Source of the DNA: Rhodospirillales bacterium
Lineage (GTDB): Bacteria > Pseudomonadota > Alphaproteobacteria > Bin95
NCBI GenBank assembly: GCA_038143065.1
Contig: JAYQLI010000048.1
Location: forward strand, 1-18,733
DNA: 18,733 nt
Direction: 5' to 3'
Below the pieces are notes generated by a model. It had not been told where the DNA came from, searched no databases, and saw nothing but the letters and a program-made list of their open reading frames with translations. The position numbers were made by a program, and so were the translations under genes. Numbering within the stretch: position 1 is the first letter of the stretch; every line of letters begins with the position of its first letter. This document shows, one piece after another, positions 1,097-18,439 of the stretch.

Positions 1097-1120
1097 ATCG
1101 GATTCCTCCGTTGACTACTT

Positions 1121-1161
1121 TTGTAGCAAACGCTAACAAATGGAAAATGCTGTTGCAACAG
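1121..1161. promoter_or_regulatory. Palindromes in the divergent GST/TetR intergenic region; candidate TetR operator(s)
   Basis: Imperfect inverted repeat TTGTAGC-AAAC-GCTAACAA (1121-1139) and perfect 12-bp palindrome CTGTTGCAACAG (1150-1161), both in the 72-bp divergent gap. Confidence 0.45.
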
Positions 1162-1168
1162 GTGAAAA

Positions 1169-1779
1169 ATGGCGCGTCCGCAGAAGCTGAAAACAGAGGA
1201 TATTCTAGATCGTGCAACGGATCTTTTTGGAAACATGGGTGTGATGCGGTATCGACACGCGATCTTGAAGTCGCGCTCGATCTGAAGGCGCCAGCCATAT
1301 ATCGTCGCTTCGAAAGCAAGAACCTATTTCTGGCACGAAGCATAGAGTACTATGTCGAAACCGTTGTTGACAAACGTATCAGGCAGGTCTTGGACAGCAC
1401 CGAACACCCGATCAAAGGTCTGCGCGACTTTTTCCGGGAGATGCTCGAGCAGCACAGCGGTGAACCGGAATTGCGAGGGTGCCTGCTGACCAACACTGCC
1501 GCCCATCAGGAAACAAAAACCCCGAAGTCAGCGCCGCGTTGGAATCGTGGTTTCGAAGTCATTCGCTCTGCGTTTCGGCGACAGATCGAACGAGCCAAAG
1601 ATGCCGGGTACATCAATGAAAATGAAGATGCGGGAGCGCTGGCTCAGGCGCTTTTCATTTCGCTACAAGGCCTGCTGACGCTTTCCAGAATCGGCGCCCC
1701 TGACCTGATGGCTGGCATTGACAAAACATTTCAATTGCTCGGCGCGTGCGGCGTTGAAACGACACGGAAAGGAACCTGA
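1169..1779 (+). CDS. TetR/AcrR-family transcriptional regulator (NemR/ComR-like); frameshifted near 1225
   Basis: ATG at 1169 gives MARPQKLKTEDILDRATDLF. Adding one T to the T5 run joins it to WKHGCDAVSTRDLEVALDLKAPAIYRRFESK (HTH). The C-terminal domain has GCLLTNT. Confidence 0.88.
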
Positions 1780-1780
1780 A

Positions 1781-2104
1781 ATGGCCGACACCAAAGACCA
1801 AACAAGACCAGCCCATATTCTGGCGCACATCTCTGTTACCGATCCCAAAAAATACCGGGAGTATGAGAAGGGCTTCTTTCCAGTTTTAAAGCCATATGGT
1901 GCACGCTTCATCACCTATGACGACAACGTCACGGTCCTGGAGGGCGCACGCGCTGAAGGGCGGACCGTTTTGGTCGAGTTCCCATCGGAAGAAGCAGCAC
2001 TGAACTGGTGGAACTCTCCCGATTATCAGCGGATTGCGGAAATGCGCCGTGCGGGAGCGACTTGCCACTCCATCGTGCTTGTTCACGCAATTGCAGATCG
2101 ATAA
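1781..2104 (+). CDS. DUF1330 family protein (dimeric alpha+beta barrel)
   Basis: VTDPKKYREY...YGARF...VLEG...RTVLVEFPSEEAALNWWNSPDYQRIAEMR is the typical DUF1330 pattern. The ATG directly follows the TetR stop. Confidence 0.85.
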   Translation: MADTKDQTRPAHILAHISVTDPKKYREYEKGFFPVLKPYGARFITYDDNVTVLEGARAEGRTVLVEFPSEEAALNWWNSPDYQRIAEMRRAGATCHSIVLVHAIADR

Positions 2105-2146
2105 GCGTTCGCCAAACGGCGGCACGTATGAACCGACAAAAACTTG

Positions 2147-2181
2147 TGGCAGTTTTCACCAAGTTTATGTCGATTTCGCCA
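2147..2181 (+). promoter_or_regulatory. Candidate GlxA/AraC binding site (two half-sites, 21-bp period) upstream of the NMO operon
   Basis: TGGCAGTTTTCACC-N7-TGTCGATTTCGCCA; the same architecture recurs at 6619-6653 and 9683-9717. Confidence 0.6.
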
Positions 2182-2245
2182 CTGGAGGAAGTCACGCGGC
2201 CCTCTACCGTCTTCCCAATAGTGATAAACAGGGAAAGATTCCAAG

Positions 2246-3226
2246 ATGTTGCCTGACATTCTCAAAGATCGCCTCAGCATCCCGGTGATCGCCGCACCTA
2301 TGTTCCTGGCCTCCGGGCCGCAATTGGTCATCGAGTGCTGCAAGGCCGGGGTAGCTGCGGGCTTTCCTGCGCTTAACCAACGTAGTTCTGAAGGTTTCGA
2401 GGAATGGCTGATTGAGATCAATACAGCCCTTGAATCCTATGAGCAGGAAACCGGCAAAGCACCTGCTCCTTTCGGGGTCAACCTTGTGGTGCACCCGTCC
2501 AACCCACGCCTTGAAGCGGACCTTGCGCTGTGCGTCAAACACAAGGTGCCACTGATCATGTCCATCCTCGGGGCAGACCCAAGAGTAGTGGATGCAGTGC
2601 ATTCTTATGGTGGGCTGGTCTTTCATGACGTCGTCAACGCCAAACATGCCCGCAAGGCTGTTGAGGCGGGAGTAGATGGGTTAACGGCTGTCGCCGGAGG
2701 TGCCGGAGGTCATGCTGGCAATCTCAACCCCTTTGCCCTGATCAACGAAATTCGCCAATTCTTCGATGGTACGGTCTTACTCGGCGGTGCACTGTCCACT
2801 GGGGGCGATGTAGCCGCTGCCCAGATGATTGGCGCGGATCTGGCCTATGTCGGCACCCGGTTCCTTGGCACCAAAGAGTGCATGGTCTCTGATGCCTACA
2901 AACAGATGCTGATCGACTCGGTGTCCACCGACATCGTCTATACCCCAGTCATATCCGGCGTACCGGCGAGTTTTCTGTCAGGCAGCCTGAAAGAGGCGGG
3001 AATAGATCCGAAGACCGCCGAGAAACCAAAGATGGACCTGGGTCTGGAACTGGCAGGCGCCACGGAAGGTGGCGAGAAAAAGCCCTGGCGAGACATCTGG
3101 TCCGCAGGCCAAGGCGTAGGCAGTATCAATGATCTGCCGACCACATCCGAACTCGTTGCCCGGATGAAAGACGAATACCAAGCCGCGATCACCGCACAAA
3201 ACGCGCGTGCGGCGCACTGGTCGTGA
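2246..3226 (+). CDS. Nitronate monooxygenase / FabK-like FMN-dependent oxidoreductase family protein
   Basis: Intact 326-aa ORF with PVIAAPMFLASGP, GAGGHAG, IGADLAYVGTRF and WRDIWSAGQGVGSI motifs. Confidence 0.9.
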   Translation: MLPDILKDRLSIPVIAAPMFLASGPQLVIECCKAGVAAGFPALNQRSSEGFEEWLIEINTALESYEQETGKAPAPFGVNLVVHPSNPRLEADLALCVKHKVPLIMSILGADPRVVDAVHSYGGLVFHDVVNAKHARKAVEAGVDGLTAVAGGAGGHAGNLNPFALINEIRQFFDGTVLLGGALSTGGDVAAAQMIGADLAYVGTRFLGTKECMVSDAYKQMLIDSVSTDIVYTPVISGVPASFLSGSLKEAGIDPKTAEKPKMDLGLELAGATEGGEKKPWRDIWSAGQGVGSINDLPTTSELVARMKDEYQAAITAQNARAAHWS

Positions 3227-3245
3227 ACGCGAAAAGGAAACACTA

Positions 3246-3855
3246 ATGAAACTCTATTTTGCACCTGACACCCGTGCTGTTCGTACCGCGTGGCTCATGT
3301 TCGAACTTGGGCTTGAATTCGAATTACACCGCTTTGAACGGCTGGGCGACCCGGCCATGAGGTCACCCGAGTTCCTTGAGATAAGTCCGAATGGGCGCAT
3401 CCCCAGTGTTGGTTGACGGTGAAATACGCATCTTCGAAAGCCCGGCCATCGCCGAGTATCTGGCTGCGCGATACGGTGAAGGCAAATTGGTGCCTGACGT
3501 CAACTCGAACGCATTTCCCGTATACCTGCAATGGCTGCACTACGGCGAAGGCATGATTATGGGCCCAATGAACAATTTTGTGGTCGAAACCATACTGCTC
3601 AAACCCGAGCGCCGGTCGGAAGAGCACGCCAACCGGGCGCTGAAGTTGATGATGCGCATGGTGCAGACCGTGGATGCTCACATGGTGGATCGAGAGTATT
3701 TGGCTGGCGATTTCACCGTAGCCGATACGATCACTGGCCATGCCTGCTATATGTGCCAGAAATTTGGCGTTGATTTCTCGGGTTTGCCAAACTTGCAGGC
3801 CTACGTGGACAGGTTGAAGGAACGCCCAGCTTTCCAGAAAGCCCTGGCACTCTGA
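3246..3855 (+). CDS. Glutathione S-transferase family protein; frameshift (extra C) at ~3400-3404
   Basis: MKLYFAPDTRAVRTAWLMFELGL...ISPNGRI joins PVLVDGEIRIFESPAIAEYL...YLAGDFTVAD...PNLQAYVDRLKERPAFQKA. An AAGGA RBS precedes the start. Confidence 0.88.
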
Positions 3856-3923
3856 TTTTCTTGGGCGGCAGAGGGGCAGCCGCTCAAACACCCTATCATG
3901 ACGACTCTGGGAGGAGGCGAACG

Positions 3924-5459
3924 ATGATTTCATCGATCGGACAAGTATTGCCAAATGCCGCCGCGAAATTCGGAAAGAAGACGGCACTGATAACCGAAAA
4001 CCGCAACCTGAGTTTCGAGGAAATGGAAACACTTTCGAACCGGGCAGCGAACGGGCTGGTCGCATTGGGGGTTTCCAAAGGGGATCGTGTCACGATCTAT
4101 GGCGCCAACTCTTGGGAATGGCTGGTGGCTTATTACGCGGTTTTCAAGGTGGGTGGCGTTGCCAATCCTATCAACTCGATGCTGACGTCGCAGGAGGTGG
4201 CATACATCATAGAAGACGCCGGTGCGAAAGCCGTGATCGCGGCTTCAGACAAAGCGCAGATCCTAATGGACGCAAACTGTGCTTCGCTGGAGCATGTCAT
4301 TCTTTGGGGGGATGACATTCCGGCAGGTGTCGTTCCCTTCCATACCCTTTTGGAACAGGGCAAGGCGCTGTTCGCTCCGGTCTCGGTTGAAGGCGATGAT
4401 CTCGGTAAAATTTGCTACACATCGGGGACAACCGGGAAACCGAAAGGTGCGATGCAGTCACAGCGCAGCCTGATATTGAACCCGGCCTACACAGCCCTAA
4501 TGCAAGGCCGCAACAAGCATGATGTGTTCCTCAACCCGCTGCCGTTCCCACATGTGTATTCTTCGGTTTTGTTCAACGCAAATTTCCTGTGTGGATCGAC
4601 ACTGGTTATGCTGGAACGCTTCTCTGAAGAAGGAATGCTGAGTGCTGTGCAGGAACATGGTGTCACAGTGATGGATATCGTACCGACCGGATATTACTAT
4701 CTGCTGGCCCATCCCGATTTCGAGAAATATGACCTGTCGTCACTGACACGCTGTACTGTTGGCGGGCAAACCCTGCCCGCAGCCAAATCGCTTGAGTTCA
4801 CCGAGAGAACTGGTGTTCCCGTGCTTGAAATGTGGGGCATGACTGAACTATCCGGCGGCGGCGCGGCCAACCCGTTTCTTGGGATCAACAAGCCCGGAAC
4901 GATTGGTCCTGCCTATCCCGGACACATGGCTAAGGTGGTTGACGCTGAAAATCCGGATCGTGAACTGGATAACGGCCAACCCGGTGAATTGATGATCCGT
5001 GGACCGCTGGTAATGCAGGGCTACTACAACAACCCAGATGCGACTGCCGAAACCATCCGGCACGATGGTTGGATGCATACAGGCGATATTGTGACCAAAG
5101 ACGATGACGGCTATCTGACGATCGTCGATCGGAAGAAGGACATGATTCTGACCGCCGGGTTCAACGTTTATCCGGTGGAACTTGAACGCGCTCTTTGTAT
5201 GCATCCGTCCGTTGCTCTAGCCGCAGTCGGCGGCGTCGCTGACGACGCCAAGGGAGAGATTGCGAAAGCCTATGTTGTTCTTCGACCAGGGCAGGAAGTA
5301 AGTGGTCGCGCCTTGGTCGATCATTGCCGCGAACATCTTGCCGCCTACAAAGTACCTCGCGCTGTCCAGTTTGTGGCCGAAGTGCCGATTACGCCAACGG
5401 GTAAGATCATGCGCCGCCTGTTGTCCGATTTGGATGACGGCACAAGAGCAATAACCTAG
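3924..5459 (+). CDS. AMP-dependent acyl-CoA synthetase (long-chain fatty acid/aryl acid-CoA ligase family)
   Basis: A GAGGAGG RBS precedes the ATG at 3924. Motifs: YTSGTTGKPKG, WGMTE, GELMIRGPLVMQGYYNNP, HTGD, DRKKDMI and the terminal TGKI lysine. Confidence 0.92.
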   Translation: MISSIGQVLPNAAAKFGKKTALITENRNLSFEEMETLSNRAANGLVALGVSKGDRVTIYGANSWEWLVAYYAVFKVGGVANPINSMLTSQEVAYIIEDAGAKAVIAASDKAQILMDANCASLEHVILWGDDIPAGVVPFHTLLEQGKALFAPVSVEGDDLGKICYTSGTTGKPKGAMQSQRSLILNPAYTALMQGRNKHDVFLNPLPFPHVYSSVLFNANFLCGSTLVMLERFSEEGMLSAVQEHGVTVMDIVPTGYYYLLAHPDFEKYDLSSLTRCTVGGQTLPAAKSLEFTERTGVPVLEMWGMTELSGGGAANPFLGINKPGTIGPAYPGHMAKVVDAENPDRELDNGQPGELMIRGPLVMQGYYNNPDATAETIRHDGWMHTGDIVTKDDDGYLTIVDRKKDMILTAGFNVYPVELERALCMHPSVALAAVGGVADDAKGEIAKAYVVLRPGQEVSGRALVDHCREHLAAYKVPRAVQFVAEVPITPTGKIMRRLLSDLDDGTRAIT

Positions 5460-5490
5460 GAGCACGCCCCCAGCAAACGGGCCAAGAATC

Positions 5491-5518
5491 AACCGGTGTC
5501 GAACCAGACGCCGGTTTT
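5491..5518 (+). terminator. Probable intrinsic terminator hairpin between the convergent ligase and AraC genes
   Basis: AACCGGTGTC-GAACCA-GACGCCGGTT stem (one G:U pair) ending in a short T run. Confidence 0.45.
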
Positions 5519-5604
5519 GCCATGTCTAGCCTGACTGCATCGACAGGCCATTGTATTGCTCACCTTAAAATGTCTGATCAAGTTTCGAACGGTATTGGTT
5601 CGTT

Positions 5605-6604
5605 TCACTCTTCGATTCTGAGCCGATTGAACCGCTGACGATAGGCATGCGGCGTCACTCCAGTCATCTTGCGGAACAGTCGCGAAAACGAACTGGCGTC
5701 AAGATATCCCACCCGCTCAATGATCTCCGCAAGAGGGTCTCCGGTGTTTTCCAACAATCGCTTCGCAGCCTCGATGCGGACCGCCTGCAGGTAAGCCAGC
5801 GGCGTTGTGTCCAGTTCTTGCTTGAATCGACGGATCAGGGTGCGCTGGCTTACGTTCAGATGATCAGCAAGCGCCTTTTGTTCGATGGTCTCGCTCAGGT
5901 GGTTTTGCAGCCAATACTGTGCCTTGGCCACGACCGGATCGCGACTGTATTCGTTGTCAAAAAAGCTCCTGGTATGGCGTCTGCGAATTGGGCCCGGCGT
6001 CGATCAGCATCGTCTTAGCACAACTACCAGCGAGGTGAGGTCCGGCATAGCGCTCGATCAGGTGAACTGCCATGCTTAGATGTGCCGTCATGGCGCCGCT
6101 TGTCATGAGCCTCTCGTCTTCGACCAGTAAGGCATTGGCATCCAAATCAATCTTTGAAACCGCCTGCGGGAAGGGCCGTTCAAGCCACCAGGCAGTGGTA
6201 GCACGTCGGCCATCCAAAAGCCCAGTTTGTGCCAATAGTAGCGGCCCGGTGCAGTTTGCACAAATCGTGCTGCCCCGTTGCCAGCTTTCTTTGATCCACT
6301 CTAGAAGAGGGCGCTGTTCCTTGGTCAACACATCAAGATCGGCCATGCCTTGGTAAGAATACGCGGGCAGATAGATGAGATCGAAATCCTCAGCATCCGG
6401 CAGCGCCACATCACCGTTCATTCTCATGCCGCCGCTAACCGTCACAGGTTCAGCGGAACATGACACGATACTGCATTCAAACAGTCCAAGATCATCCCCG
6501 TTTTGACGCCGTACATGATCGTTCGCTATCTGGAACGCATCCATCAACCCGCCAATACTGTAGAGGTAGGAGTTCGGATAGAGAACAACGGCTACTCGGG
6601 GCAT
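5605..6604 (-). CDS. GlxA-family transcriptional regulator (DJ-1/PfpI-like domain + AraC HTH); frameshifted near 5960
   Basis: An AGGAG RBS precedes MPRVAVVLYP at 6604. It contains CANCTGPLLLAQTGLLDGRRATTAWW, and a C-terminal SQRTLIRRFK...VRIEAAKRLLE...VGYLDASSFSRLFRKMTGVTPHAYR. Confidence 0.9.
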
Positions 6605-6618
6605 AAAGGTCTCCTGAA

Positions 6619-6653
6619 TGGTAAATCTGACACAAGGTGTGCCAGATTTGCCA
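6619..6653 (-). promoter_or_regulatory. Candidate autoregulatory GlxA/AraC site
   Basis: The minus strand reads TGGCAAATCTGGCA-N7-TGTCAGATTTACCA, immediately upstream of the RBS. The two 14-bp halves also form an inverted repeat with 2 mismatches. Confidence 0.6.
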
Positions 6654-6695
6654 ATCCGCGGCAAATCATTCGCCGCAGGGTTTCTGTCTATCTTG

Positions 6696-8007
6696 CTAAC
6701 GTAGCAAACTTGGCAACCACAGAGCCGCGGTCGGGAATATGGCCAAAGCGATCATAACCGCCAGCTCTATCAGTACGAAAGGCACGGCTGCGGCATATAT
6801 CTGCCCAAGCCCGATATTCTTTGGCGCTACACCGCGCATTACGAAAAGAAGCAGTCCGAATGGCGGCGTCAGAAGGCTGATTTCCATTGCGATCAGCATC
6901 ATCACCATCAGCCAGGTCGGGTGAATGCCAAGGGTCTCCGAGATTGGAAGAAAGAACGGCAGAGTTAGAAGGATCATGCTGATCTGATCCATGAAGCAGC
7001 CAAGAAACAGCAGGACCAGCATCATCAGCAGCATCGCCGTGACCACATCGAACTGGATGGTGCTGATCGCTTCAGGACACCACTTGTGGCCCCCGAAACC
7101 TGCAAAACCTGCGCGAAAGTCAGCGAACCCGCGATGATGAATAGAAGCATGCCCGTGACCTTGGCCGTCTCTCTGAGCGCTTTGATCAAGTTCGAACGAG
7201 TTAGCTGGCCGTAAATGGCACTGATCACGACAGCAGCAATGCATCCCAATGCAGCGGCCTCTTCCGGCGCGGCGATGCGGGCAAAGATGCTACCGACAAC
7301 CACAACAAAGATCGTGAACAGAGGTAGTACATCGAAAACGAAAGGTTTCCAGCGCTCCCAACCGTCTACATCAACGGTTTCGATGGGGGAACCAACGAAG
7401 GGTTCAGACGGCAGCGGATGTAAATATAGACCACGAACAGCCCTGCCATCACCAATCCGGGTAAGATGCCGGCAATCAACAGCTCCGAGATAGAACGTTC
7501 TGCCAGACTCGCCAGCAGCACCGCCAATGCCGAGGGAGGTATCAGCATGGCGATGCCGCCGACGGCTGCGATCGGCCCCATGGCCAACTTGGAATCGTAG
7601 CCTCGCTTGATCATGTCGGGCAGCAACAGATTTCCCAGGATGGCGGTGTTGGCGATGGTCGAACCGGACAGCGAGGAAAACACAGTGCCTCCAGCAATGG
7701 AGACCATGCAAAGCCGCCCTGGAACACCTGAAATCAGCCGGTCGATGGCCGCAATAGATCGGAAAGCTACCCCTGTCTGAAACAGGATTTCCCCCATCAG
7801 GATAAACAACGCCACGGGCACGAGCGAATACTTCGAGATTGAAAAGACATATTCCATCGGCATCAGACTGAGGCCGACTTCACCGCGGAGGAAAACAAAT
7901 GTGCCGACGATGTTGGCGGCAAAGAAAGCAAATGCGATCGGGGCACCGGCAACCATCAGAACGACGACGCAGCCCAGCAGCATTGTTAGAGCGAAATACC
8001 ATTCCAT
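6696..8007 (-). CDS. dctM: TRAP transporter large permease; split across three frames
   Basis: Motifs VPVALFILMGEIL, FSSLSGSTIAN, GGIAMLIPPS, PEEAAALG, GCFMDQISMILLT and EISLLTPPFGLLLFV; hydrophobic throughout. Confidence 0.9.
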
Positions 8008-8010
8008 GGG

Positions 8011-8535
8011 TCACATCCCCTCGTTCAGATGATCCAGTTCTTCCGCGACATGGTCGGCCCGGAAAAAGCGGAAGACAAACTCGATAGCCAGAAGGGCGAA
8101 GCTGACCAATACGATGGCCAGCAGCAACCATTCGGGCACGTTGAAGTACTTCATTAGCATTGCCTCGAACATCCGGCTGTTGGCCAGGTTCACCCATGTG
8201 AACCAGGCCATGGCGATACAGATGACACACCCAAAAACATCTATGGCCCGTTCAACAAGGATCAGAACCTTGCGTGGCAAGGCGCTCAGCAACAGATCGA
8301 CCCGCACATGAGCTCCCAGTCGCAGCAACCATGGTGCCGTGAGAAAGACGCAGGCGAATAGCGCGTATTCGATGATTTCCTGCACCCCAGCGAGCGTCCC
8401 CAGACCAAACAGGCGCAGAAACAGATCGACCGAAATTCCAATCACGAAACCCGCAATTACAAGTCCAACAAGCGTTCCTATGGTTTCGTAAAGTCGGCCA
8501 AATGCCGTATCGATTTGTTTGAAGCTGTTCAGCAT
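8011..8535 (-). CDS. dctQ: TRAP transporter small permease
   Basis: Intact 174-aa ORF with about 4 TM segments and the APWLLRLGAHVRVDLL motif; lies between dctP and dctM. Confidence 0.9.
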   Translation of the reverse strand: MLNSFKQIDTAFGRLYETIGTLVGLVIAGFVIGISVDLFLRLFGLGTLAGVQEIIEYALFACVFLTAPWLLRLGAHVRVDLLLSALPRKVLILVERAIDVFGCVICIAMAWFTWVNLANSRMFEAMLMKYFNVPEWLLLAIVLVSFALLAIEFVFRFFRADHVAEELDHLNEGM

Positions 8536-8563
8536 CTGACTACCTCAAGACCAGAAATGTCAG

Positions 8564-8588
8564 GCCCGCAGCCAAACGGACTGCGGGC
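8564..8588. other. GC-rich hairpin between dctP and dctQ (possible mRNA-stabilising or attenuating stem-loop)
   Basis: GCCCGCAG...CTGCGGGC form perfect 8-bp arms in the intergenic gap. Confidence 0.5.
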
Positions 8589-8603
8589 GACAGTGCAATA
8601 TGC

Positions 8604-9567
8604 TCAATGCGAGAAGAGCGGACGGAGTTTTTCAGCAAACTCAGCATTGATTTCAGCCACACCAGCCCAGCCCGCATCACGGGATGCTTGAACGAAGACC
8701 TCGGCATCAGCGTCAGAGAACGTAATGACCTCAAAATGCTCTTCAGCCTGCTTTGCAGCTGCTCCGGCTGCAAGTTTCGGATCACCCACTGTGGCCGCCT
8801 GTTGATCTTGATCGCCTCTTCCTCGATCAGGTTCTGCACGTCTTCCGGCAAACTGTCCCAGGCCCGGGCATTCATCAGAATTGCAGATCGACATCATAGA
8901 AACCAGGGTCGACACGATACTTGGTAACGGTCTCCCAGCCGGGCTGATGACCGATGACTGGCCAGCCGTACCCGTTCACGGTGCCGTTTTCCATCAGCGT
9001 GAAGATCTGGGCTGCGCCGGAGTTTTGCGTCGTCGCCCCCAGCGCTTTAAAGAAGCTGGTATAAATCGGCACCACGCGCAGGTGCTTGCCGGTCAGGTCC
9101 GGTTTGTCGATCTTGTGCCCTTCGGCCAGATACAGGTGGAATTTTACACCGTGGTGGACACGTGATATCGGCACAAGATTCTTGGTCCGATGCACGTCAA
9201 CCATCATCTGCCAACCGCCGTTTTCACGGATCTCAGCAGGGGATTTCTCCATCAGTTTCCAGGCGTCGGCCTCGGGCAGGACGTTGGTATAATACCCGCC
9301 CGTGCATACGGTGAGGTCATAGACCCCCTGTGCAGTTTTCTGAACGACAGTAAAGGGGCTCCCGATAGCCGGGGCTCCTCCCTGATAGTCGATCTTGATC
9401 TTGCCTGCGCCTTTTTCATTCACGGCTGCGATAAGCGCCTCGATCCGCTTTGAAAAGAACGACCCTTCCTGCCAGCAGCTTACCGCGCGAATGTTGGCTT
9501 CTGCGAATGCCGTACCTGCGGTTACAACGATCGCCATTGAGGCCGACGCCATCAGTTTCTTGAACAT
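8604..9567 (-). CDS. dctP: TRAP transporter substrate-binding protein; frameshifted in the 3' third
   Basis: A GGAGG RBS precedes the signal peptide MFKKLMASASMAIVVTAGTAFA. It contains DLTGKHLRV (conserved Arg) and IFTLMENGTVNG, with MNARAWDSLPEDVQ in the next frame. Confidence 0.88.
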
Positions 9568-9987: not shown

Positions 9988-10805
9988 GGCACTGTCAGAT
10001 TAAACCGCCTTGCCTGATTTCGATACTGGAACGTAGCCACTAGCCATGCCTAATTCTTTATCTTTCCGTTATTTCAAAACCAGCCCTGAGATCATCCAAC
10101 TTGCAGTTATGCTGTATGTGAGGTTCCCACTCTAACCGAGAAATGTAGAAGACCTCCTGCATGAACGCGGTGTCGATGTGAGCTATGAATCTGTAAGGTA
10201 CTGGTGGCATAGATTTGGTTCTCAGTTCGCAAGCCAGATCAAGAAGCGCAGGGCAGGGGGAATGCAACTCCAGTCATTGGAAATGGCACCTAGATGAAGT
10301 CTTCGTGAAGATAAATGGTGAAAGGCATTACCTGTGGCGTGCAGTCGATCATGAAGGTGAGGTGCTAGAAAGCTATGTCACCAAAAAGAGAGACAAAAAA
10401 GCAGCTTTAAAGTTCATGAAGAAAGCCATGCGGTGCTATGGATCACCCAACGAGATCGTCACAGATAAGCTTTGGTCTTACAGTGCAGCAGCAAGAGAAC
10501 TGGGTTGTCTCAGAAAAGCAAGTTACTAAGCGATGGGCAAACAACAGAGTTGAGAATTCACACTTACCATTTCCAACGAAGAGAAAAGGCTATGCTTCGA
10601 TTTAGACGCATGCACAGCCTACAGAAGTTCGCCTCGATGCATGCCTCGTTTCACAATCTATTCAACTCGCAAAGGTCACTCTCAAAACGCAGTACATTCA
10701 AACTAAACCGTGACGCTGCTCTCACCGAGTGGCGCTCTTTAGTGATCTCGTAGAAATAGCCATCAACTAAATACTGATGCTTGGGCTCGTTTGTCTGACA
10801 GCACC
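9988..10805 (+). mobile_element. IS6-family insertion sequence, copy 1 (818 bp)
   Basis: IRL is GGCACTGTCAGATTAA (9988). IRR reverse-complements to GGTGCTGTCAGACAAA (ends 10805). The length is typical of IS6 and it contains a DDE transposase. Confidence 0.88.
10046..10753 (+). pseudogene. IS6-family DDE transposase, disrupted
   Basis: FRYFKTSPEIIQLAVMLYVRFPL*PRNVEDLLHERG has an in-frame TAA. Further motifs: WHLDEVFVKINGERHYLWRAVDHEGEVL, IVTDK and NNRVENSH. Additional frameshifts are present. Confidence 0.9.
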
Positions 10806-11357
10806 GCCATATAAAGCCACAAGTTTTTGATATTGCTAATATAATTTATGGGTAGCGCGTCATACCCTCCAACCCACCCCCCAAAAACAAAGATTTGGTT
10901 CAAAAAGGTTCCATCAAACCATTGAGCGTCGTTACTCCGCTTTAACAAAACTTTCTTGTTTTTCATGTTTCTCCTCGCCAAACCATTAAAGTCTTCACCT
11001 TCAGAGCGGATTTAAATGGCTGTAACCATGATTTTTTATCGGTCCATTTTCACTTGGTTCAACGACTGAATAGTAAAAAATACTTGGAACACATGGGGAT
11101 ACCATGGATTGCATCTAACCTATCTAATCGCTTTTTGCCAAGTTCATTGTATTCTCAAAAATGATTAACCAGGTGAAAATGTAATTTCGGCTTGAACCTG
11201 CTTGTCGCCAAGAGATTTGCGCTCTGCAAGGCTGTCTAGATAGTGATAAAAATATCAAGGAACGCATTTTCTTGTTCTGCTGTGAAAAGGAGTTGGGTTT
11301 TCAGCTCAAGGGTTTTTAGTCGTGCTTTGCCCCAGTTATGCATCTAATTCAGTCCTA

Positions 11358-11972
11358 TTATAAAAAAGGCTTGAAAGCGCCTCTCAACCAAACAAAGATT
11401 GTCTTGTCCGTAAAACATATCGCCATCTACAAAATAAGTTGGCGAACCAAATACAAGAATGCTTTATAGCTGTACTTGTATTTGCCTCATATTCATTAAT
11501 AACTTCCGGTGCTTTGGATAGCTGAATCAGCGTATCTGCATCTAAATCTATAGATTTTAGTTTTTCAACCATGGCATCTGCATTGTTCAAGTCCAAGTTA
11601 TTCAACCAGTGGCATTGCATAAATTCAGATGAAATCATTTCTAAATCCAGCTCAAGTTTTTTAGCGGCTATGAGGATCAAATCTGCTATTTCAGCTCCAT
11701 TATTGTGGCTACTAGGAGTAGCTTTCGGCATTGTAAGAAGCCAGTATTATTGACCACCTGTCTCTTTGACGTCCGAATTGATAATCCAACGTTGCTTGTG
11801 TTCGTTCTTCCAAAGGATGATAACCATTTTCGTTTAGACATTTCATTAGATCAAAGGGCCGATGAACAACGTCCCGTCCTGCTTTCTCCGCTAATCGGAG
11901 AAAATGAAAATGCCCGATGTACGCATATGCTGAATAAGCACTGTAGAAGTATTCAAGTGGCTCAACTTTCAT
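11358..11972 (-). CDS. 2-hydroxychromene-2-carboxylate isomerase / GST-kappa (DsbA-fold) family protein; frameshifted
   Basis: N-terminal LEYFYSAYSAYAYIG...VVHRPFDL. The C-terminal YEANTSTAIK continues, in another frame, as FGSPTYFVDGDMFYGQDNL. The end coordinate is approximate. Confidence 0.8.
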
Positions 11973-11991
11973 CGTTGACTGGCCTTTTTTG

Positions 11992-12277
11992 TTATTCCAT
12001 TAAATTACCAGATAAGGGTAGCGTATGTCTATTTACGGGATCGTATTCTTGAAGCATTGGGCGTCGCTCATCTAGCCAATTCACTACGCCATCCTGCGCG
12101 CTTTGTTCAAATCCATCTGCATCTCTGATGACCACAGCGATTACCTCATCAGCAGTTGTTACTGTGAAGTGTGTATTAAAGGTCTCTTTCTTTCCCATTT
12201 TCTATTACATCAGCCAAAAATTGGTCAAAGTATTCGGGCTTCGGCTTAAAGCGGATGATGCTTAGTTTTTTGCTCAT
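11992..12277 (-). CDS. Small (~95 aa) putative dimeric alpha+beta barrel protein; one frameshift
   Basis: An AGGAG RBS precedes MSKKLSIIRFKPKPEYFDQFLADV, which joins NTHFTVTTADEVIAVVIRD...NWLDERRPMLQEYDPVNRHTLPLSG. The IRFKPKPE...F start is ABM-like. Confidence 0.7.
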
Positions 12278-12281
12278 TTTG

Positions 12282-12579
12282 CTACTCCTGTTTAATTACA
12301 AATGTTGATGCGATACCTTCTTCAGCGCGAACTGATATGATTTTTCCTTCATGTTTTTTCATGGCTTCTTTTTCGCTGTTCTGTTGCACGCTCATAACTT
12401 TCCTTACTCGGATAAACAGAAGTTAAAGATGCAGTTGTTGGGCCAGTCCGTAAGAACACTAAGCATAGTGCGTCTGGAAAATTTTTAGGCCCATTAACGG
12501 TATAGGCTTTTTCAAGTTCATCAGCGATGTCTTTGGAAGCGTACTCTGATGACTAGATTCATACGCGTCTGTAACTCAT
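12282..12579 (-). CDS. Small (~97 aa) putative alpha+beta barrel protein absent from the ORF track; frameshifted
   Basis: An AAAGGAG RBS precedes the ATG at 12579. Hand translation gives YASKDIADELEKAYTVNGPKNFPDALCLVFLRTGPTTASLTSVYPSKESYERATEQRK / EAMKKHEGKIISVRAEEGIASTFVIKQE*. Confidence 0.7.
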
Positions 12580-12604
12580 TGCTACGGCTCCTTTCAAATA
12601 TTTC

Positions 12605-12618
12605 CTCAGAATTCTGAG
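12605..12618. promoter_or_regulatory. Perfect palindrome CTCAG-AATT-CTGAG; candidate operator
   Basis: Lies about 25 bp upstream of the 12579 start; a related palindrome is at 13390-13409. Confidence 0.4.
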
Positions 12619-12697
12619 CGGACAGCGAAGTGAGACAAAACAACTTCATATTTTAGCCTATTGCTAATCAGCCCAGTCTTTAGTTGTGACACAGCGT

Positions 12698-12961
12698 TCA
12701 CCGATCGTCTGGTGAAAGTTTAAAGATTTGGTGTTTCATGCCCATCTTAGAAGCCATGTCTCTTACAAATTTCATGTGTTCAGTAAGTTTTTCTTCATCG
12801 TTGATTTGTGCTAGTATTATTGCGCTATTTTCACCGCTCTTACCTACATGCTCAGGCCCCCACCAATCAGCGCGTTTGGTTTGGTTTTCTGGTGCTGAGT
12901 ACATTGCGTGCCATTTGTCATAGGGCATGTCACCCAAATCAATATGAAATGCGTAATTCAT
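12698..12961 (-). CDS. Small (87 aa) hypothetical protein, loosely DUF3764-like / alpha+beta barrel
   Basis: A GGAGGA RBS precedes an intact ORF: MNYAFHIDLGDMPYDKWHAMYSAPENQTKRADWWG...SAIILAQINDEEKL...MGMKHQIFKLSP. Confidence 0.65.
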   Translation of the reverse strand: MNYAFHIDLGDMPYDKWHAMYSAPENQTKRADWWGPEHVGKSGENSAIILAQINDEEKLTEHMKFVRDMASKMGMKHQIFKLSPDDR

Positions 12962-12989
12962 GATTTCCTCCAATTAATATCAAGTGAAA

Positions 12990-13370
12990 CTAGAAAATAT
13001 CCCAGATAACCTGCAGTTGCGTTAATGCTAGTGCGCCAAAAATCAACGTTACTACTCCCTTGAACATTCCCCACGGGGCATTCAAAAAACTTGTTACCAA
13101 AATTTGTTGCAGCTTCTTCTTCATCCATCGTCAGCATTCGCTTTGAGGTCATCCATACAGTCAAAAGAATTGATCATGACAAAGATGAACGTACCCATGA
13201 TCATCGCGGTCATAGCCCAACCCATAGTCCCAACACTTGAGTGCAACATGAATATGGTGGCCAAATTACTTAGTATCCAAGCGTGAACCCCAATACAAAT
13301 CTCTCCCACGCACTTGGCCATTACGTTGTCTGCGATCGCGATCAGCCGCTGTATTCATTTTATTTGTCAT
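12990..13370 (-). CDS. Small hypothetical membrane protein (~125 aa, about 3 TM); frameshifted
   Basis: An AGGGAG RBS precedes the start. Segments IGVHAWILSNLATIFML, GWAMTAMIMGTFIFVMINSFDCMDDLKANADD, DEEEAATNFGNKF and NAPWGMFKGVVTLIFGALALTQLQVIWDIF* join across frames. Confidence 0.65.
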
Positions 13371-13389
13371 AAATTTTCTCCCTGTTGGC

Positions 13390-13409
13390 TTTCTAAGATA
13401 GCTTAGAAA
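13390..13409. promoter_or_regulatory. Inverted repeat TTTCTAAG-ATAG-CTTAGAAA; candidate operator
   Basis: Perfect 8-bp arms about 20 bp upstream of the 13370 start. Confidence 0.4.
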
Positions 13410-13494
13410 ACTGCCAAATGGTCTCTAGTACAGAAAGTGTACTGGGGCGGAGATATGTTGGGAATACTAAATTTAGGTGGCGAGAAACAGGAAA

Positions 13495-13782
13495 TTAAAT
13501 TCCTACGCTTGCAACCATTGGCCCAGCTTCTGCCTTAACCAAAGTTGCGCCGAATGTATCCGAACATTCAGAACGTATCTCAGCTATTCGTTGCGATGCG
13601 GCAATGAAAGTCGCTTCATCAGGATATACGGCGATAATACTCACCGTGGTATCGCTTGTCTGAACTTCAAAACATTGAGTTGCGCCTAATGACTTTATCA
13701 TAGGCATGAAATGGTTTTGCATTGTATCGTACATTTCGTCAGTAATTTCTGGTGCTTCCCAGTGTGACATACTTACGTGCAT
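13495..13782 (-). CDS. Small (95 aa) putative dimeric alpha+beta barrel protein
   Basis: An AAGGAG RBS precedes an intact ORF with a beta-alpha-beta-beta-alpha-beta-like pattern, including FEVQTSDTTVSIIAVYPDEATFIAA...VKAEAGPMV. Confidence 0.75.
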   Translation of the reverse strand: MHVSMSHWEAPEITDEMYDTMQNHFMPMIKSLGATQCFEVQTSDTTVSIIAVYPDEATFIAASQRIAEIRSECSDTFGATLVKAEAGPMVASVGI

Positions 13783-13795
13783 CGTTTGGCTCCTT

Positions 13796-14103
13796 TTACT
13801 TCAAATCTAAGACCAGAGGGTAATTAATAAACGCTTCGTCAGTTATTGGAGTAAACGTGCCTGTTTCTACGATTGCCCCAGCTTCTGCCCTTAATCGTGT
13901 TAGTTCCTCATCTTCGCTGAAACTTTTAAGATGTGCCTCACTTTCAAAGTGAATGACTGTGTGCAGCATACTGTCATCATCTTTTGCGTTCCAGCGAAGA
14001 TAAAAGTCATCCCGTGTTCCTTCATCTTATCGCCAACGGAATGCACCATATCCTTCCACGCTTGGAAGCCTTTAGATAAACGTATTGTCGTTACTACAAG
14101 CAT
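13796..14103 (-). CDS. Small (~102 aa) DUF3764-like / alpha+beta barrel protein; one frameshift
   Basis: MLVVTTIRLSKGFQAWKDMVHSVGDKMKEHGMTFIFAGTQK joins DDSMLHTVIHFESEAHLKSFSEDEELTRLRAEAGAIVETGTFTPITDEAFINYPLVLDLK*. Confidence 0.72.
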
Positions 14104-14132
14104 TGTAATTTTCTCGTTTGATAAGCTGCGAT

Positions 14133-14590
14133 TTATACTGCTGTGCTTTGAACCTTGATTATGGTTCTGAGATTTACATCAAGTGCATTATAAATTTTAG
14201 CAGCAACGGGGTTTGGCGATCGCATCGTATGTTGCTTCAATTTCTGATCATGGACGGATAGGTTACGCCTAATAAGAAATCATGCATTGTTGCCCGTCAT
14301 TATTCTGGCAACCTGAAAGTTTTTGCCCCAGATTTGAAAACATCGGGGATGCTTCTGCCATCAAATCATTAAGGTCTGGTTGTGAGATGTGCGATTTACC
14401 GCGGGTCAAAAGACAAAGCAGCTTTAAAGTTCATCAAAAGGAAATCCAAACTTAGCTATGGATTCCGCATTGAGTTAATCCTGTACCATAATTGAGCTGT
14501 AGGTATTAGATTTGGCAAATGCGTCCATGACATCTGCAAAATCATTTAAAGTATCAAAAATTGCTGGAAAACTACGCTTCCCAAGTTGTT
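14133..14590 (-). pseudogene. Degraded or mis-assembled two-domain alpha+beta barrel protein, 5' end lost at the IS6 remnant
   Basis: Hand-read fragments: NNLGSVVFQQF/DTLNDFADVMDAFAKSNTYSSIM (domain 1) and GAKTFQVARIMTGNNA/DFLLGVTYPSM/EIEATYDAIA/NPVAAKIYNALDVNLRTIIKVQSTAV* (domain 2). Confidence 0.55.
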
Positions 14591-14670
14591 AATTCACATT
14601 TACCATTTCGACGATGAAAGGGCCTTACTTCAGATTTAGACGAATGAAACAGCTTCTACAGAAGTTCGCC
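14407..14670 (+). mobile_element. Patchy third IS6 remnant (3' part of the transposase)
   Basis: AAAGCAGCTTTAAAGTTCAT (~14415-14434) and AATTCACATTTACCATTTCGACGA...GATTTAGACGAATG...CTACAGAAGTTCGCC (~14591-14670) match IS6 copy 1. Confidence 0.6.
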
Positions 14671-15341
14671 TGATGTCGATGGGGAACGTAGCTTTTTAGC
14701 CATGCCTCCTTTATCCTTCCGCTATTTCAACTAGCCAAAGATCATCCAACTGCAAACGCAGTACATTCCCTTCACTGAGAAATGTAGAAGACCTTCTGCA
14801 TGAACGCGGTGTCGTGACGGTACTGGTGCAGGTTTGGCGCGCAGCTCAAGCCAGATCAAGAAGCGCAGGGCAGGGTGGGGCGGCTAGTAATTGAAATGGC
14901 ACCTGGATGAAGTCTTTGTGAAGATAAATGGAGAAAGGCATTACCTGTGGCGTGCAGTTGATCACTGAAGGCGAGGTATTAGAAAGCTACGTCACCAAAA
15001 GAGAGACAAAAAAGCAGCTTTAAAATGAAGAAAAGCCATGCGGCGCCATGGATCACCAAATGAAATAGTTACATGGGTCCTACGCGGTGCAGCAGCAAGA
15101 GAACTGGGCTCGATGGGCAAACAACAGAGTTGAGAATTCACACTTCTTTCGACGACGAGAAAGGGCCATGCTTCGATTTAGACGAATGCACAGTCTACAG
15201 ACCTTCGCGCTAATCCATGCCTCGCATAACTACGGGCTTCAACTGTCACCAAAAGCAGTTGAAACTTAACCAACGTTGAGTGGCGCTTTACGGGTCGTAG
15301 CGTCAAATGAATACTGACTTGGGCTCGTTAGTCTGACAGCA
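14668..15341 (+). mobile_element. IS6-family insertion sequence, copy 2; same orientation as copy 1, lacks IRL, many internal deletions
   Basis: Collinear with 10012-10803, e.g. GAAATGGCACCTGGATGAAGTC, GAAAGGCATTACCTGTGGCGTGCAGT and CTTGGGCTCGTTAGTCTGACAGCA. Confidence 0.85.
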
Positions 15342-15346: not shown

Positions 15347-15703
15347 TCACCCCAAAGAACTTAAGACGTTGTAGCTCGTTATTGCGCGTGCCGTTCCATT
15401 CCACACGAAGCGCCCATCGTCATTAACCTCAACCACATGGGTCACCCCGTGATACTCCCGCACAAAGCGGCTGCCTGGTTTGAAGGCAGGGCGCATCACA
15501 TCGCGCCGGGCGGCACTCTTGAGCCGACGATCCAAACGCTTGGTATATCCACCGACCGTATCCAGCTGATAGGCGTGGCTCAAAATCTGCACCATCAGGG
15601 GCTTACTTAAATGCTTTGGGGGAGGGCGCCCCACGACCTCGCGCCACTCTGTCATCAGTGCCTCACGCGAGGCCGCTGCTAATCTATCCAAATCTAATCT
15701 CAT
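15347..15703 (-). CDS. DUF2924 family protein; 3' end damaged
   Basis: EWREVVGRPPPKHLSKPLMVQILSHAYQ...GG...KPGSRFVREYHGVTHVVEV..DGRFVWNG, with remnants ARAIT and (other frame) KFFGV. A GGAG RBS precedes the start. Confidence 0.85.
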   Translation of the reverse strand: MRLDLDRLAAASREALMTEWREVVGRPPPKHLSKPLMVQILSHAYQLDTVGGYTKRLDRRLKSAARRDVMRPAFKPGSRFVREYHGVTHVVEVNDDGRFVWNGTARAITSYNVLSSLG

Positions 15704-16046: not shown

Positions 16047-16277
16047 TCAATCGAACATTTCTGGATACTCTTTATGCAAGTAAGTCAAAAGCTGTTCGAA
16101 GCTCTTGAAACTGGGATAGTCGATTGGGACGATTGATCTCCAACCCATAGGATCCTCAGGATCTCTCCTGAAAACCTCAAAACAATATCTTCCATTTTCG
16201 TATTTATATAAGTCTATGCATCTAGTTTGATTGTGATCCTCCAAAGACTTAATCACTATCCGGGCATTTTTCTTCAA
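16047..16277 (-). CDS. Small conserved hypothetical protein (~76 aa)
   Basis: TTG start, then KKNARIVIKSLEDHNQTRCIDLYKYENGRYCFEVFRRDPEDPMGW. The ORF track fuses it to the upstream gene because of an indel. Confidence 0.65.
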   Translation of the reverse strand: MKKNARIVIKSLEDHNQTRCIDLYKYENGRYCFEVFRRDPEDPMGWRSIVPIDYPSFKSFEQLLTYLHKEYPEMFD

Positions 16278-16281
16278 ACGG

Positions 16282-17157
16282 CTACTTTCTCTGGGAACTC
16301 GTGTAGGCTTCGAATTTTCATAGTACTCATCGAAGCCGATATCTTTCCGTAACTCGCCAAAATCCAGCAATAAGTCATTTCTGGGCTGATCAACTTTCAT
16401 GCGGTCTAATGTCATCTTCATAGCGTTCATGGCAGCTGAAAGCAGAGTGAGAGGATAAGCTGCAATCTGGTAGCCCAGCTCTGAGATCTCGTTCATTGCC
16501 AGGTTCGTGTGGTCCACCTTCGACAATATTTGCCATTTTACAGCCAGGAAGTTCTGAACAATTGTACGCATTTCATCTATGTTTTTAGGAGCTTCGACAA
16601 ACAGAATGTCAGCTCCCATTTCGTGAAACCTGTGTGCGCGTTCGATAGCTTCCTTTAATCCATGTGTATGATTTGCATCGGTTCTTGCCATAATGAGAAT
16701 GTCAGTGCCTCCTCGCGGGCATCAACTGCTGCTTTAATTCTATCGAATGCTTCTTCTCGGCCAACTACGTCTTTACCAGGAGTATGTCCACAACGCTTGG
16801 GAGCTAATTGGTCTTCTATCAATACCGCAGCGCATCCGGCGCGAGCAAAGCCACCAACTGTCCTACGAACGTTCATGGCATTACCATATCCAGTATCGCC
16901 ATCTGCAATCATTGGTATTGATATCGCTTCATTAATATTCCGAGCTTGATCAACAACTTCAGCATAAGACATGAGACCCAAATCTGGGGCCCCAAGCCTT
17001 GAGGCAGATGTTGCAAAACCAGACATAAACGTCAGCTGAAAATCTGCTTGCTCTATTAACTTTGCAGACAGAGCATCAAAACAACATGGCATTGGCAAAA
17101 ATTGACCAGAATTGATCAATTTTACGAAGATTGTCTGCAGCTACATTTTGATTTCAT
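16282..17157 (-). CDS. Isocitrate lyase / PEP mutase superfamily enzyme (methylisocitrate lyase / dimethylmalate lyase-like); frameshifted
   Basis: Motifs CFDALSAKLIEQ, FMSGF, PDLGL, IADGDTGYGNAMNV, IEDQLAPKRCGH (catalytic loop), ARTDA, GADILFVEAP and AAYPLTLL. Confidence 0.9.
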
Positions 17158-17166: not shown

Positions 17167-18439
17167 CTAAAGTTTAAATGGAATGTAGAGAACTAAGTCA
17201 GACCAAACATACATGACGAAAACTGTGAACAGCATCAAGAGTAAGAACGATACCCCCTTTGCTACTTCACCGAGTTTAGCGTTTGCTACAGATTGTATCA
17301 TATAAATTCAGACCTACTGGAGGTGTGATTAAAGCACATTCAACCATAACAACCACATGAAAATGCCGAACCAAATTGGGTCAATACCCATACTCATCGC
17401 TGCGGGTAGCAGAACTGGAACCATGATTAGAACCATGGATAAAGTCTCAAATACAAGCCCCATTGCGATCAAAACAACACAAACGACGATGATAAACAAT
17501 GTTTTGCTATCGACATAAGTTTGTATCAGTTGCGAAATATCCTGGAGGATCCGGTATAGCGTAATCGCTTTGCCGAATATCTTTGCCCCGGCGATGATAA
17601 TCAAGATAGCGGCTGTTGTTACCATTGCCTCAAATATTGCTTTCTCTTGAAATTTGCCATACTTAGCGAACGCATGATTACCACGGTCAATATCATTGAT
17701 AAGGCAAAACCTACAGCAGCGGCTTCGGTAGGCGTGAAAATACCAGGTAAATACCGCCCAAAATAAGTGCTGCAAGTGCAATTGTTGGTGCTACTTTTAT
17801 ACTATGTCTTAAGCGCTCATCCCAACTGGCTTTTTTCAGTGGGTGTGTATCCACCAAATACATGAGCATAGATGATCGAGTAGAGTATGAATAACCCAAT
17901 TAGGAAGATACCTTTGGGCCTACCGGCCAAGAATAGAGAGATGACACTTTCTTCTGTGATAAAACCATACACGATCATTGGTAGGCTTTGTGGGATCAAG
18001 ATACCAGAGGTGCCGCCAGCAGCCAACAATCCGTAAACAAAGTTCTTATTGTAGCCTCTAGAAATCATTTCAGGGATAGCGACAACGCCGATAGTTGCTG
18101 CGGTTGCAACCGAAACTCCAGAGATTGCGGGCAAAGATACCACAAGAAACAATTGTTGCAATTGCTAGTCCCCCAGGCCAATGCCCGACCCAAGCTTGGA
18201 CAGCACTGTATAGGTCCTTACCACAACCACCGTAAAGAAGAACGTTGCTCATTAATAAGAAGAGTGGAACGGCTAATAATATAAAACCATCAAGGGTTGA
18301 CAGAATGGCTTGTGGAGCCATTAACGGTGAAAAGCCTTCTGCCAAGAGCATACCTAATCCAAGCCCCCCAAAGAGAAGGCGACAGGTAAACTTGCCAGAG
18401 AAGCGCAAACATTACGAATAAGATCGTTACAAGTTTCAT
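17167..18439 (-). CDS. dctM: TRAP transporter large permease; heavily frameshifted
   Basis: MKLVTILFVMFALL start, then LLAVPLFLLMSNVL, AISGVSVATAATIG, AAGGTSGILIP, FETLSMVLIMVPVLLP and GIDPIWFGI. Confidence 0.88.

Follow-up and report, generated by a model that had tools for sequence, protein, structure and literature searches.

A leader-headed array of small-protein genes between degenerate IS6 copies and its relatives in marine Rhodobacteraceae

The described proteins closest to those considered here include 2OD4 and 2PGC, two of five structures solved from novel Global Ocean Sampling (GOS) clusters, to which the available portion of the report assigns no function (PMC2557142). The former comes from an uncultured marine organism and carries the description 'dimeric ferredoxin-like protein'; the latter is described as an uncharacterized protein of 207 amino acids (aa). 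Such families are common in ocean metagenomes, and none of them, including these two that were crystallized in 2007 as 'novel' ocean proteins, has a known function. We examined a window of 18,733 nucleotides (nt), which is the whole of contig C48 of the source assembly G000 (4.63 Mb, 52 contigs), and in which an original prediction, made from the letters alone, had picked out a mobilised array of small alpha+beta barrel proteins. We read this array as an IS6-bracketed, partly decayed, two-unit copy from a flexible island of marine Rhodobacteraceae, whose genes would form a recombining battery under common regulation and encode small proteins that act independently and bind or convert compounds without cofactors; we give this reading a probability of about 0.55. 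Three features had been missed by the original prediction: a shared leader element, the truncation of gene B and the existence, since 2007, of crystal structures for two of the families.

Coordinates below are window positions with the strand in brackets, and A to J, X, C', D', F', G' and H' are gene family letters. Genes were called by a three-frame reading of the minus strand and checked against intact relatives in collected loci (L numbers), one of which, L022, is an independent 5.2-kb contig of a Rhodobacteraceae metagenome-assembled genome (MAG) with 84% nt identity to the window. The features of the array, in order of position, are as follows.

10012-10803 (+): IS6-family copy 1, transposase frame in at least four pieces; DDE_Tnp_IS240 match at 10215-10526 (E = 1.9e-30)
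10865-11343 (-): gene J remnant, small gene or genes; its ATG lies directly against the stop of I; truncated by IS6 copy 1
11344-11972 (-): gene I, DsbA-like (2-hydroxychromene-2-carboxylate-isomerase-type), in three frames here
11992-12277 (-): gene H, 94 aa when intact, no Pfam model; frame split by one extra base near 12180
12282-12579 (-): gene G, 96 aa when intact, paralogue of D; frame breaks here, intact in L022 and L039
12698-12961 (-): gene F, intact, 87 aa, no Pfam model
12990-13370 (-): gene E, 127 aa when intact, three hydrophobic segments by computed hydropathy; frame breaks here
13371-13447 (-): leader of unit 2, with the palindrome at 13428-13442, a TAnnnT box and the AGGGAGAA ribosome-binding site; palindrome 57 nt before the ATG of E
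13495-13782 (-): gene D, intact, 95 aa, dimeric-ferredoxin-like, 2OD4 family
13796-14103 (-): gene C, DUF3764; one frame break near 13981
14136-14590 (-): gene B, tandem DUF6854; 5'-truncated, many frame breaks
14584-14675 (+): IS6 end fragment (self-blastn, tblastn)
14668-15341 (+): degenerate IS6 copy 2, frame broken (self-blastn, tblastn)

The nine co-oriented minus-strand genes, B to J, sit between two degenerate IS6 copies in DNA with a GC content of 0.38-0.44 (11001-14500), as against 0.53-0.57 over 501-9500. Intergenic gaps are 13 nt (C-D), 28 nt (E-F), 4 nt (G-H) and 19 nt (H-I), with about 120 nt each between D and E and between F and G, and AAGGAG, AGGGAG or GGAGG ribosome-binding motifs lie upstream of D, E, F, G and H. 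The co-oriented, AT-rich array with strong ribosome-binding sites and short gaps that had been predicted is thus real, with nine genes rather than eight, and its mobilisation agrees with the bracketing IS6 copies.

The leader element and the units it heads

A leader of about 75 nt was found by comparing the DNA around D in different contexts. It consists of a palindrome, AGTACA-N5-TGTACT, a -10-like TAnnnT box 21 nt after the palindrome and then a AGGGAGAA ribosome-binding site. The search pattern GTACANNTTCTGTAC matched once in the window, compared to 0.02 matches expected by chance, and the leader was present in 25 of the 136 collected loci, with six copies in L039, four in L042 and three in L022. 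The distance from the end of the palindrome to the first ATG of the unit ranged from 51 to 72 nt and was mostly 57 nt. Alignment of 14 copies, heading B, C, D, E, GYD, cupin and other genes, detected invariant letters at G6-A10, T12-T21, G23, T43, A44 and T48, which correspond to the palindrome and the three letters of the TAnnnT box. Four exact copies of the palindrome were detected in the genome to which the window is assigned (on C38, C41, C48 and C49), compared to an estimated 0.14 by chance, and the Rhodobacteraceae genome G293 carried nine leader copies, four of them inside 3.9 kb.

Behind each leader come between one and five small genes in the same orientation, as in the following units.

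L022: leader-u110; leader-B-C-D; leader-E-F-G-H
L042: leader-D''; leader-B-C-D; leader-E-F-u84; leader-u87
L039: cupin-u102-SnoaL; YdhR-X; u206; D alone; E-F-G-H; GYD
G293: GYD-D-DsbA-like-alpha/beta hydrolase; u219-D-F; cupin-X; cupin-DUF3303-SnoaL; D-DUF1330-H

Leader-headed genes therefore include D, F, H, X, GYD, DUF1330, DUF3303, YdhR, cupin, SnoaL, DsbA-like and alpha/beta-hydrolase genes; the DUF1330 gene of the palindrome-led G293 unit lies at L138:8294-8584. A 136-aa DUF5681 protein is encoded directly 5' of the palindrome at two separate places in G293 (L137:6396-6803 and L138:1537-1944).

Several searches examined what kind of element this might be. At gathering score, Rfam gave no matches in the window, L022, L023, L039 or L008. 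RNAalifold returned a 6-bp hairpin alone for the leader, with no pairs changed on both sides. A scan of 11200-14800 for consensus promoters and terminators detected fewer promoter-like sites than in shuffled sequences and none at unit borders, and a -35-like hexamer was absent from the leader. The combination of an invariant TAnnnT box, a fixed distance to the ATG and no -35-like hexamer suggested a promoter. Judged from the aligned sequences, the leader may be a promoter in which the palindrome serves as the operator of a regulator.

The genes, their families and their folds

Intact versions of the genes were used to assign families, as Pfam returned no useful match to the fragmented window copies of B, C, E, G and H. 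The lengths of the intact proteins (C, 102 aa; D, 95 aa; F, 87 aa; G, 96 aa; H, 94 aa; B, 207 aa) bear out the predicted five small proteins of 87 to 102 aa and one two-domain protein. The intact 207-aa B orthologue has two domains: that of L023 matched PF21614 (DUF6854) over two stretches with E = 1.6e-33 and 115.3 bits, compared to a cut-off of 27, and matched PDB entry 2pgc_A in sequence with E = 6.3e-27. We take the 2PGC fold to be a tandem dimeric barrel. Carriers of DUF6854 were found in 8 of 251 Rhodobacteraceae genomes, all with two matches in one frame of 207-266 aa apart from one fragment. The B gene of the window covers only residues 50-206 of the orthologue; about 48 N-terminal codons and the leader are gone, and homology to every relative ends at 14590, at the IS6 end fragment 14584-14675.

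The intact orthologue of C reached 24.9 bits for DUF3764 (PF12594), a marginal pass of the cut-off of 24, while the paralogue C' scored 39 bits; the two window pieces of C had no Pfam match by themselves, and weak DUF1330 matches appeared as well. DUF3764 had been predicted for two proteins and holds for C. It was rejected for F, since none of 24 F-family members matched PF12594 at E<=0.1 and hhalign of F with C gave 23-24%; the lone lead had been an Atlas match at 0.92.

Gene D provided the clearest link to a solved structure. Predicted structures cover D and F. The AlphaFold2 model of D (pLDDT, 86) had a beta-alpha-beta-beta-alpha-beta topology and matched 2od4_A in Foldseek with E = 1.4e-5 and a TM score of 0.76, and in VIA-align with a Z score of 12.0 and a root mean square deviation of 2.2 A over 91 residues; the D profile also found the 2od4 sequence with E = 5.8e-4. 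The next structural neighbours were EthD, ABM, SnoaB, PA0709, HapK and LsrG, with Z scores of 9-10.4. The model of F (pLDDT, 91) had a beta-alpha-alpha-beta-beta-alpha-beta topology, which reads as the beta-alpha-beta-beta-alpha-beta order of strands and helices; its best Foldseek match was SnoaB, a weak one with E = 2.7e-3, and TMq values were 0.49-0.64 across dimeric-barrel matches, including ABM proteins and 2OD4. Both models thus show the dimeric alpha+beta barrel topology. The F family comprises 214 clusters at 90% identity in metagenomes, and the H family comprises 245, mostly of 94 aa and intact as the norm; the F and H sequences are identical letter for letter to Atlas entries.

Profile comparisons detected kinship among some of these families. 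Alignment of D with G by hhalign gave 92% (E = 6e-7) and lined up their VYP-x-x-E motifs, in agreement with the strand-YP-helix signature of the original prediction. With a deeper H alignment, H versus G gave 82%, and H versus genuine ABM proteins of this genome gave 60%, compared to 1-8% for array families against the latter with shallow alignments. Two distant H relatives reached 19.7 and 18.2 bits on ABM (PF03992; cut-off, 23.1), and H is weakly ABM-like. These profile results showed a D-G-H homology chain in which H is distantly tied to G and to ABM proteins. The relations of H to D, C to D, B to D or G and H to F were nonsignificant in hhalign. B was rejected as a sequence paralogue of D or G (hhalign, 0.3%), and the common beta-alpha-beta-beta-alpha-beta pattern claimed for all members was found in the D and F models, whose best matches were dimeric ferredoxin-like and ABM proteins, and not as sequence paralogy of B with D or G. 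PDB profile searches with G, F, C and H gave no significant match, and a six-frame search of the whole genome with PF03992 detected six matches, none on C48 and none in an array gene. Overall, most array members are single-domain ferredoxin-like (ABM/DABB) alpha+beta barrel proteins, as modelled for D and F.

The ratio of nonsynonymous to synonymous substitution rates (dN/dS) between orthologues of B, D, E, F and G was 0.04-0.20, indicating real genes under purifying selection. E was intact in L022 and L039, missing from variant L056 and from an RNA-library contig with the joint 12968>13494, and truncated in L036 and L038. The pieces of I scored 17.1 and 16.1 bits on PF01323, under the cut-off of 25.6, and an intact, 46%-identical paralogue on C35 scored 97.6 bits; I follows H in the window alone, with other genes there in L039, and a DsbA-like gene follows D in a G293 unit as well. 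In L038 and L036, DNA downstream of the hydrolase unit has 72-81% nt identity to the J remnant, whose peptide resembles a 68-aa open reading frame (ORF) of L038.

Four side observations concern these families. A 26-nt direct repeat with 85% identity occurs at 13509-13534 (in D, encoding AEAGPMVA) and 13864-13889 (in C, AEAGAIVE), with a similar AEEG strand motif in G; it is a hint that DUF3764 and the D family are distant kin or have undergone gene conversion. The original prediction had seen no DNA-level repeats, which is not quite so given this stretch and the repeated leader; no attC-like repeats were found. At L047:1365-1748 is a chimeric ORF in which the N-terminal part of GFA (glutathione-dependent formaldehyde-activating-like) is fused to the C-terminal half of C, and which is a deletion or recombination product within an array. 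A 219-aa protein recurs beside D (L137:3833-4489, with homologues in L077, L078, L083, L090 and L138); with sub-cut-off NIPSNAP and DUF6854 matches, this is possibly a further tandem-barrel protein related to B. H-family relatives of 242-335 aa (P0194, P0223, P0235, P0236, P0260 and P0265) have two H-like stretches in all but P0235 and are possibly fused forms; their N-terminal extra part had no informative Pfam domain, just a weak DUF4177 match.

State of this copy and occurrence of the array

Within this copy D and F alone are intact, and frames are broken in B, C, E, G, H and I. Compared to L022, the window is short of bases at 17 places and has extra bases at 11 (alignment-end gaps counted), many of them of 1-2 nt and intragenic, and the indels in B, C, E and G are not present in L022. 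Four public runs (one DNA and three RNA-library) sided with L022 against the window at 13084, 13126, 13276, 13981, 14114, 14213, 14248 and 14282; these eight places, among them the break of C near 13981, fall in B, C and E, and none is listed for G or I. Frame splits were also detected elsewhere on the contig, in two DctM TRAP permeases, a phosphoenolpyruvate (PEP)-mutase-family gene and a glutathione S-transferase (GST) gene (6696-8535, 16047-17119, 17329-18408, and 764-1096 with 3391-3855). The breaks in other contig genes and their absence from relatives indicated that they are specific to this assembly or strain; either sequencing error or real decay may lie behind them. Two defects are real, namely, the 5' truncation of B and the extra base in H, which is also found in L022. 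The latter (12175-12200) is common to the window and L022, is not present in L039 and occurs as both alleles in public DNA and RNA-library contigs. Substitutions flanking the H break resemble purifying selection on both sides.

IS6 copies 1 and 2 have 73% nt identity and direct orientation and enclose 10804-14583; four transposase pieces were recovered in copy 1 by tblastn with the L069 IS6 transposase, and the repeat is also present on contigs C10, C32 and C38. IS6 transposase genes occur near B-C-D in L024, L050, L069 and L070. The bracketing pair in the window is a relic, not an active transposon. A DUF2924 gene lies at 15347-15703, directly past IS6 copy 2; this family is often found alongside serine recombinases of integrative elements. 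At 1718-2101, in the 54% GC part of the contig, there is a DUF1330 protein, of a dimeric-barrel family, with TetR, nitronate monooxygenase and GST genes.

It is uncertain whether C48 belongs to its genome bin. The bin has 5.5% estimated contamination, and the nearest relatives of the array are Rhodobacteraceae. Within the bin's own family of 37 genomes, a B-like match was found in three, the truncated copy of G000 included, and a DNA search of 41 relatives of the genome detected no copy of the array. The contig backbone (400-9700) had no close match in four Rhodobacteraceae genomes, and an NCBIfam scan gave nothing informative for the array.

The array recurs in estuarine and marine metagenome contigs at 92-96% nt identity, and intact versions come from Rhodobacteraceae MAGs and marine metagenomes at 84-96%, the lower value being that of L022. 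Contigs that cover it come from one DNA library and from three RNA libraries, the latter belonging to three studies. Among 89 D-seeded loci, at least one other tracked family was present in 49, and in 32 of the 48 loci of at least 5 kb. For the 39 D orthologues, C was the adjacent gene in 19 of the 34 loci with room for it; the corresponding figures were 17 of 31 for B, 6 of 31 for E and 5 of 31 for F. The survey of neighbourhoods for arrays of variable membership, as proposed with the original prediction, thus found that the homologues do cluster, loosely. In the window's genome, every strong copy of C, F, G, H and A (a 128-aa family) lies in an island on C48, C7, C5 or C42, and D, E and X occur together on C12. 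The island on C7 and C5 has C', D' (twice), F', G' and H' at 19-50% identity, together with GFA, SnoaL and others; the two versions (C7:19400-24600 and C5:16700-21900, L008 and L009) are near-duplicates with GFA, X, C', G', H', D'', the 128-aa family, D', SnoaL and F' in divergent orientation, and the C5 copy carries extra frame breaks. Glutathione-linked neighbour genes (GST, GFA and DsbA-like) recur.

Alternative explanations and comparison with known systems

In the explanation that we prefer, unit 1 would be B-C-D, with its leader and the start of B lost to the IS6 fragment, and unit 2 would be leader-E-F-G-H-I(-J), complete in outline. The palindrome would be the operator of one regulator, centred some 42 nt upstream of where transcription is inferred to start, and this regulator would turn on many palindrome-led units together. 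The products would act independently, probably as homodimers, and would need no cofactor to bind small metabolites or to convert them; the glutathione-linked genes nearby suggest that electrophilic or aromatic compounds may be the targets. Furthermore, the repeated leader would supply homology for swapping units, which would explain the variable membership. The breakpoints of variants, at the palindrome or at gene ends, count in favour of this explanation too. The units favour small proteins of the ferredoxin-like kind, accompanied by NTF2-like and cupin proteins, and this fits a co-induced battery.

A number of results weigh against this explanation. The exact palindrome is lineage-restricted: more than one copy was found only in G293 among the 251 Rhodobacteraceae genomes, and single matches in other genomes were no commoner than those of a reversed-pattern control, which occurred in about 26 genomes; the single matches in four other Rhodobacteraceae genomes are at this control level. 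The paralogous C7 and C5 islands have no copy of the palindrome. No regulator gene was identified and no transcription start is known; contigs cannot reveal one, and RNA libraries can hold DNA. The D loci without B and C are mainly those with D at 70-76% identity, and neither C nor D was found near any of five distant B homologues, such that the B-C-D linkage holds only among close relatives. Similarly, of eight H loci in four genomes, G was within 1.5 kb in one and F in one. B, C and F have no significant profile relation to D, G or H, and the models with a ferredoxin-like fold are those of D and F. Finally, none of the members, not even the solved 2OD4 and 2PGC, has a known ligand or activity.

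The palindrome could instead serve chiefly for site-specific recombination; the arrays would then be a cassette platform, of an integron-like or dif-module-like kind, for the capture of small barrel genes. The breakpoints of variants are consistent with such a site, as they fall at the palindrome or at gene ends (13423-13485, 12697 and 11983) and as loci with B-C-D only retain the palindrome 3' of D and then diverge immediately. Units are gained and lost precisely, with E missing in L056 and in the RNA-library contig, several palindrome copies are spaced 0.5-2 kb apart and the GFA::C ORF of L047 is chimeric. However, no integrase or recombinase was found among the 30 window ORFs of at least 80 aa or the genes scanned in the G293 arrays, and the fixed distance to the ATG and the conserved TAnnnT box and ribosome-binding site are those of a promoter-leader. 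The arms of the palindrome are merely 6-8 bp, and there is one element per several genes, with gaps of 4-30 nt that are too small for a per-gene site. We consider this explanation unlikely.

It is similarly doubtful that the genes share no function at all and are unrelated accessory genes that accreted in a recombination hot spot, with the leader as a locally spread portable promoter or repeat. Membership varies by locus, homologues of H and B are scattered elsewhere, the element is limited to a narrow lineage and neighbours include unrelated genes for an EamA transporter, a pentapeptide-repeat protein and an ATPase inhibitor zeta subunit, all of which would be expected from accretion. This does not account for the strong bias in fold class, which extends over DUF6854, DUF3764, D, G, H, F, GYD, DUF1330, YdhR and sub-cut-off NIPSNAP-like and ABM-like matches, or for the recurrence of the same five families (C, D, F, G and H) in the second island on C7 and C5, where they are just 19-50% identical.

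A bolder form of the cassette idea, which we regard as rather improbable, is a hitherto unrecognised system of marine Rhodobacteraceae, integron-like but with promoter-carrying cassettes, in which one regulator and/or recombinase would act at AGTACA-N5-TGTACT, and in which a shuffled, co-expressed library of half-barrels would pair combinatorially into pockets for algal or environmental metabolites. A dedicated multi-component system, with barrel hetero-oligomers that share a single substrate with the membrane protein E and the isomerase I, would account for the co-oriented genes with gaps of 4-30 nt, for the tight B-C-D trio of 17-19 loci and for the adjacency of G and H in three diverged loci of this genome. 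We judge it quite improbable, as E is dispensable (absent in L056 and at the contig joint 12968>13494, truncated in L036 and L038), I follows H in the window only and L039 differs there, C and D are lacking near the distant B homologues (0/5), and in L039 one leader precedes D alone. This was the reading of the original prediction, with a membrane partner and a glutathione-dependent isomerase; E and the DsbA-like I turned out to be optional rather than fixed members. A poly-immunity locus of immunity or antitoxin-type proteins against polymorphic toxins is very improbable: the varied small proteins encoded in tandem on mobile DNA, in sets that differ between loci, and one G-like protein with a below-cut-off match to Imm44 (E = 0.041; 14.6 bits versus 25) speak for it, but there is no toxin, Rhs, contact-dependent inhibition (CDI) or type VI secretion system (T6SS) gene in the window or scanned loci, the PADLOC matches were not meaningful (only chance-level Cas1 rows) and the structural neighbours are enzymes and ligand binders.

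The co-regulated battery of independent proteins thus remains our preferred explanation. The shared units, the upstream element and the fold class offer a concrete handle in the form of a palindrome-binding factor, an inducing condition and a list of downstream genes. A physiological role for a sizeable block of the marine protein 'dark matter' of the Roseobacter group could follow, and the way in which small-gene arrays are built and exchanged could be revealed.

Four described systems can be compared with this locus. The cofactor-free enzymes with an ABM or dimeric alpha+beta barrel (SnoaB, ActVA-Orf6, LsrG, IsdG/MhuD, EthD and PA0709) share the topology and the length of about 95 aa and are the next-best neighbours of D and F, whereas PF03992 finds no array gene. 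IS26/IS6 pseudo-compound transposons are similar in that two IS6 copies in direct orientation bracket 10804-14583; they differ in that both window copies are degenerate (73% identical), one is shortened and B was truncated by an insertion. Integron cassette arrays likewise hold small, co-oriented, AT-rich and mostly uncharacterised genes with variable membership and a repeat at unit borders. In contrast to these, there is no IntI among the 30 window ORFs of at least 80 aa, and the repeat lies upstream of the units, at a fixed spacing from the ATG and with a ribosome-binding site. Moreover, there is one repeat per up to five genes, its arms are 6-8 bp and an attC site would not fit into gaps of 4-30 nt. 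A literature search (DUF3764/DUF6854, the PDB codes, dimeric barrel with Roseobacter, Planktomarina islands), with subscription journals outside its scope, found no description of the arrays or of the leader, and the shared leader of about 75 nt is new here. The closest likeness is to the GOS structures of JCSG (Joint Center for Structural Genomics), D resembling 2OD4 in profile and fold and B resembling 2PGC in sequence. While the portion of PMC2557142 available to us reports no function, partner or gene context for either protein, here both families stand together in one leader-headed unit, B-C-D.

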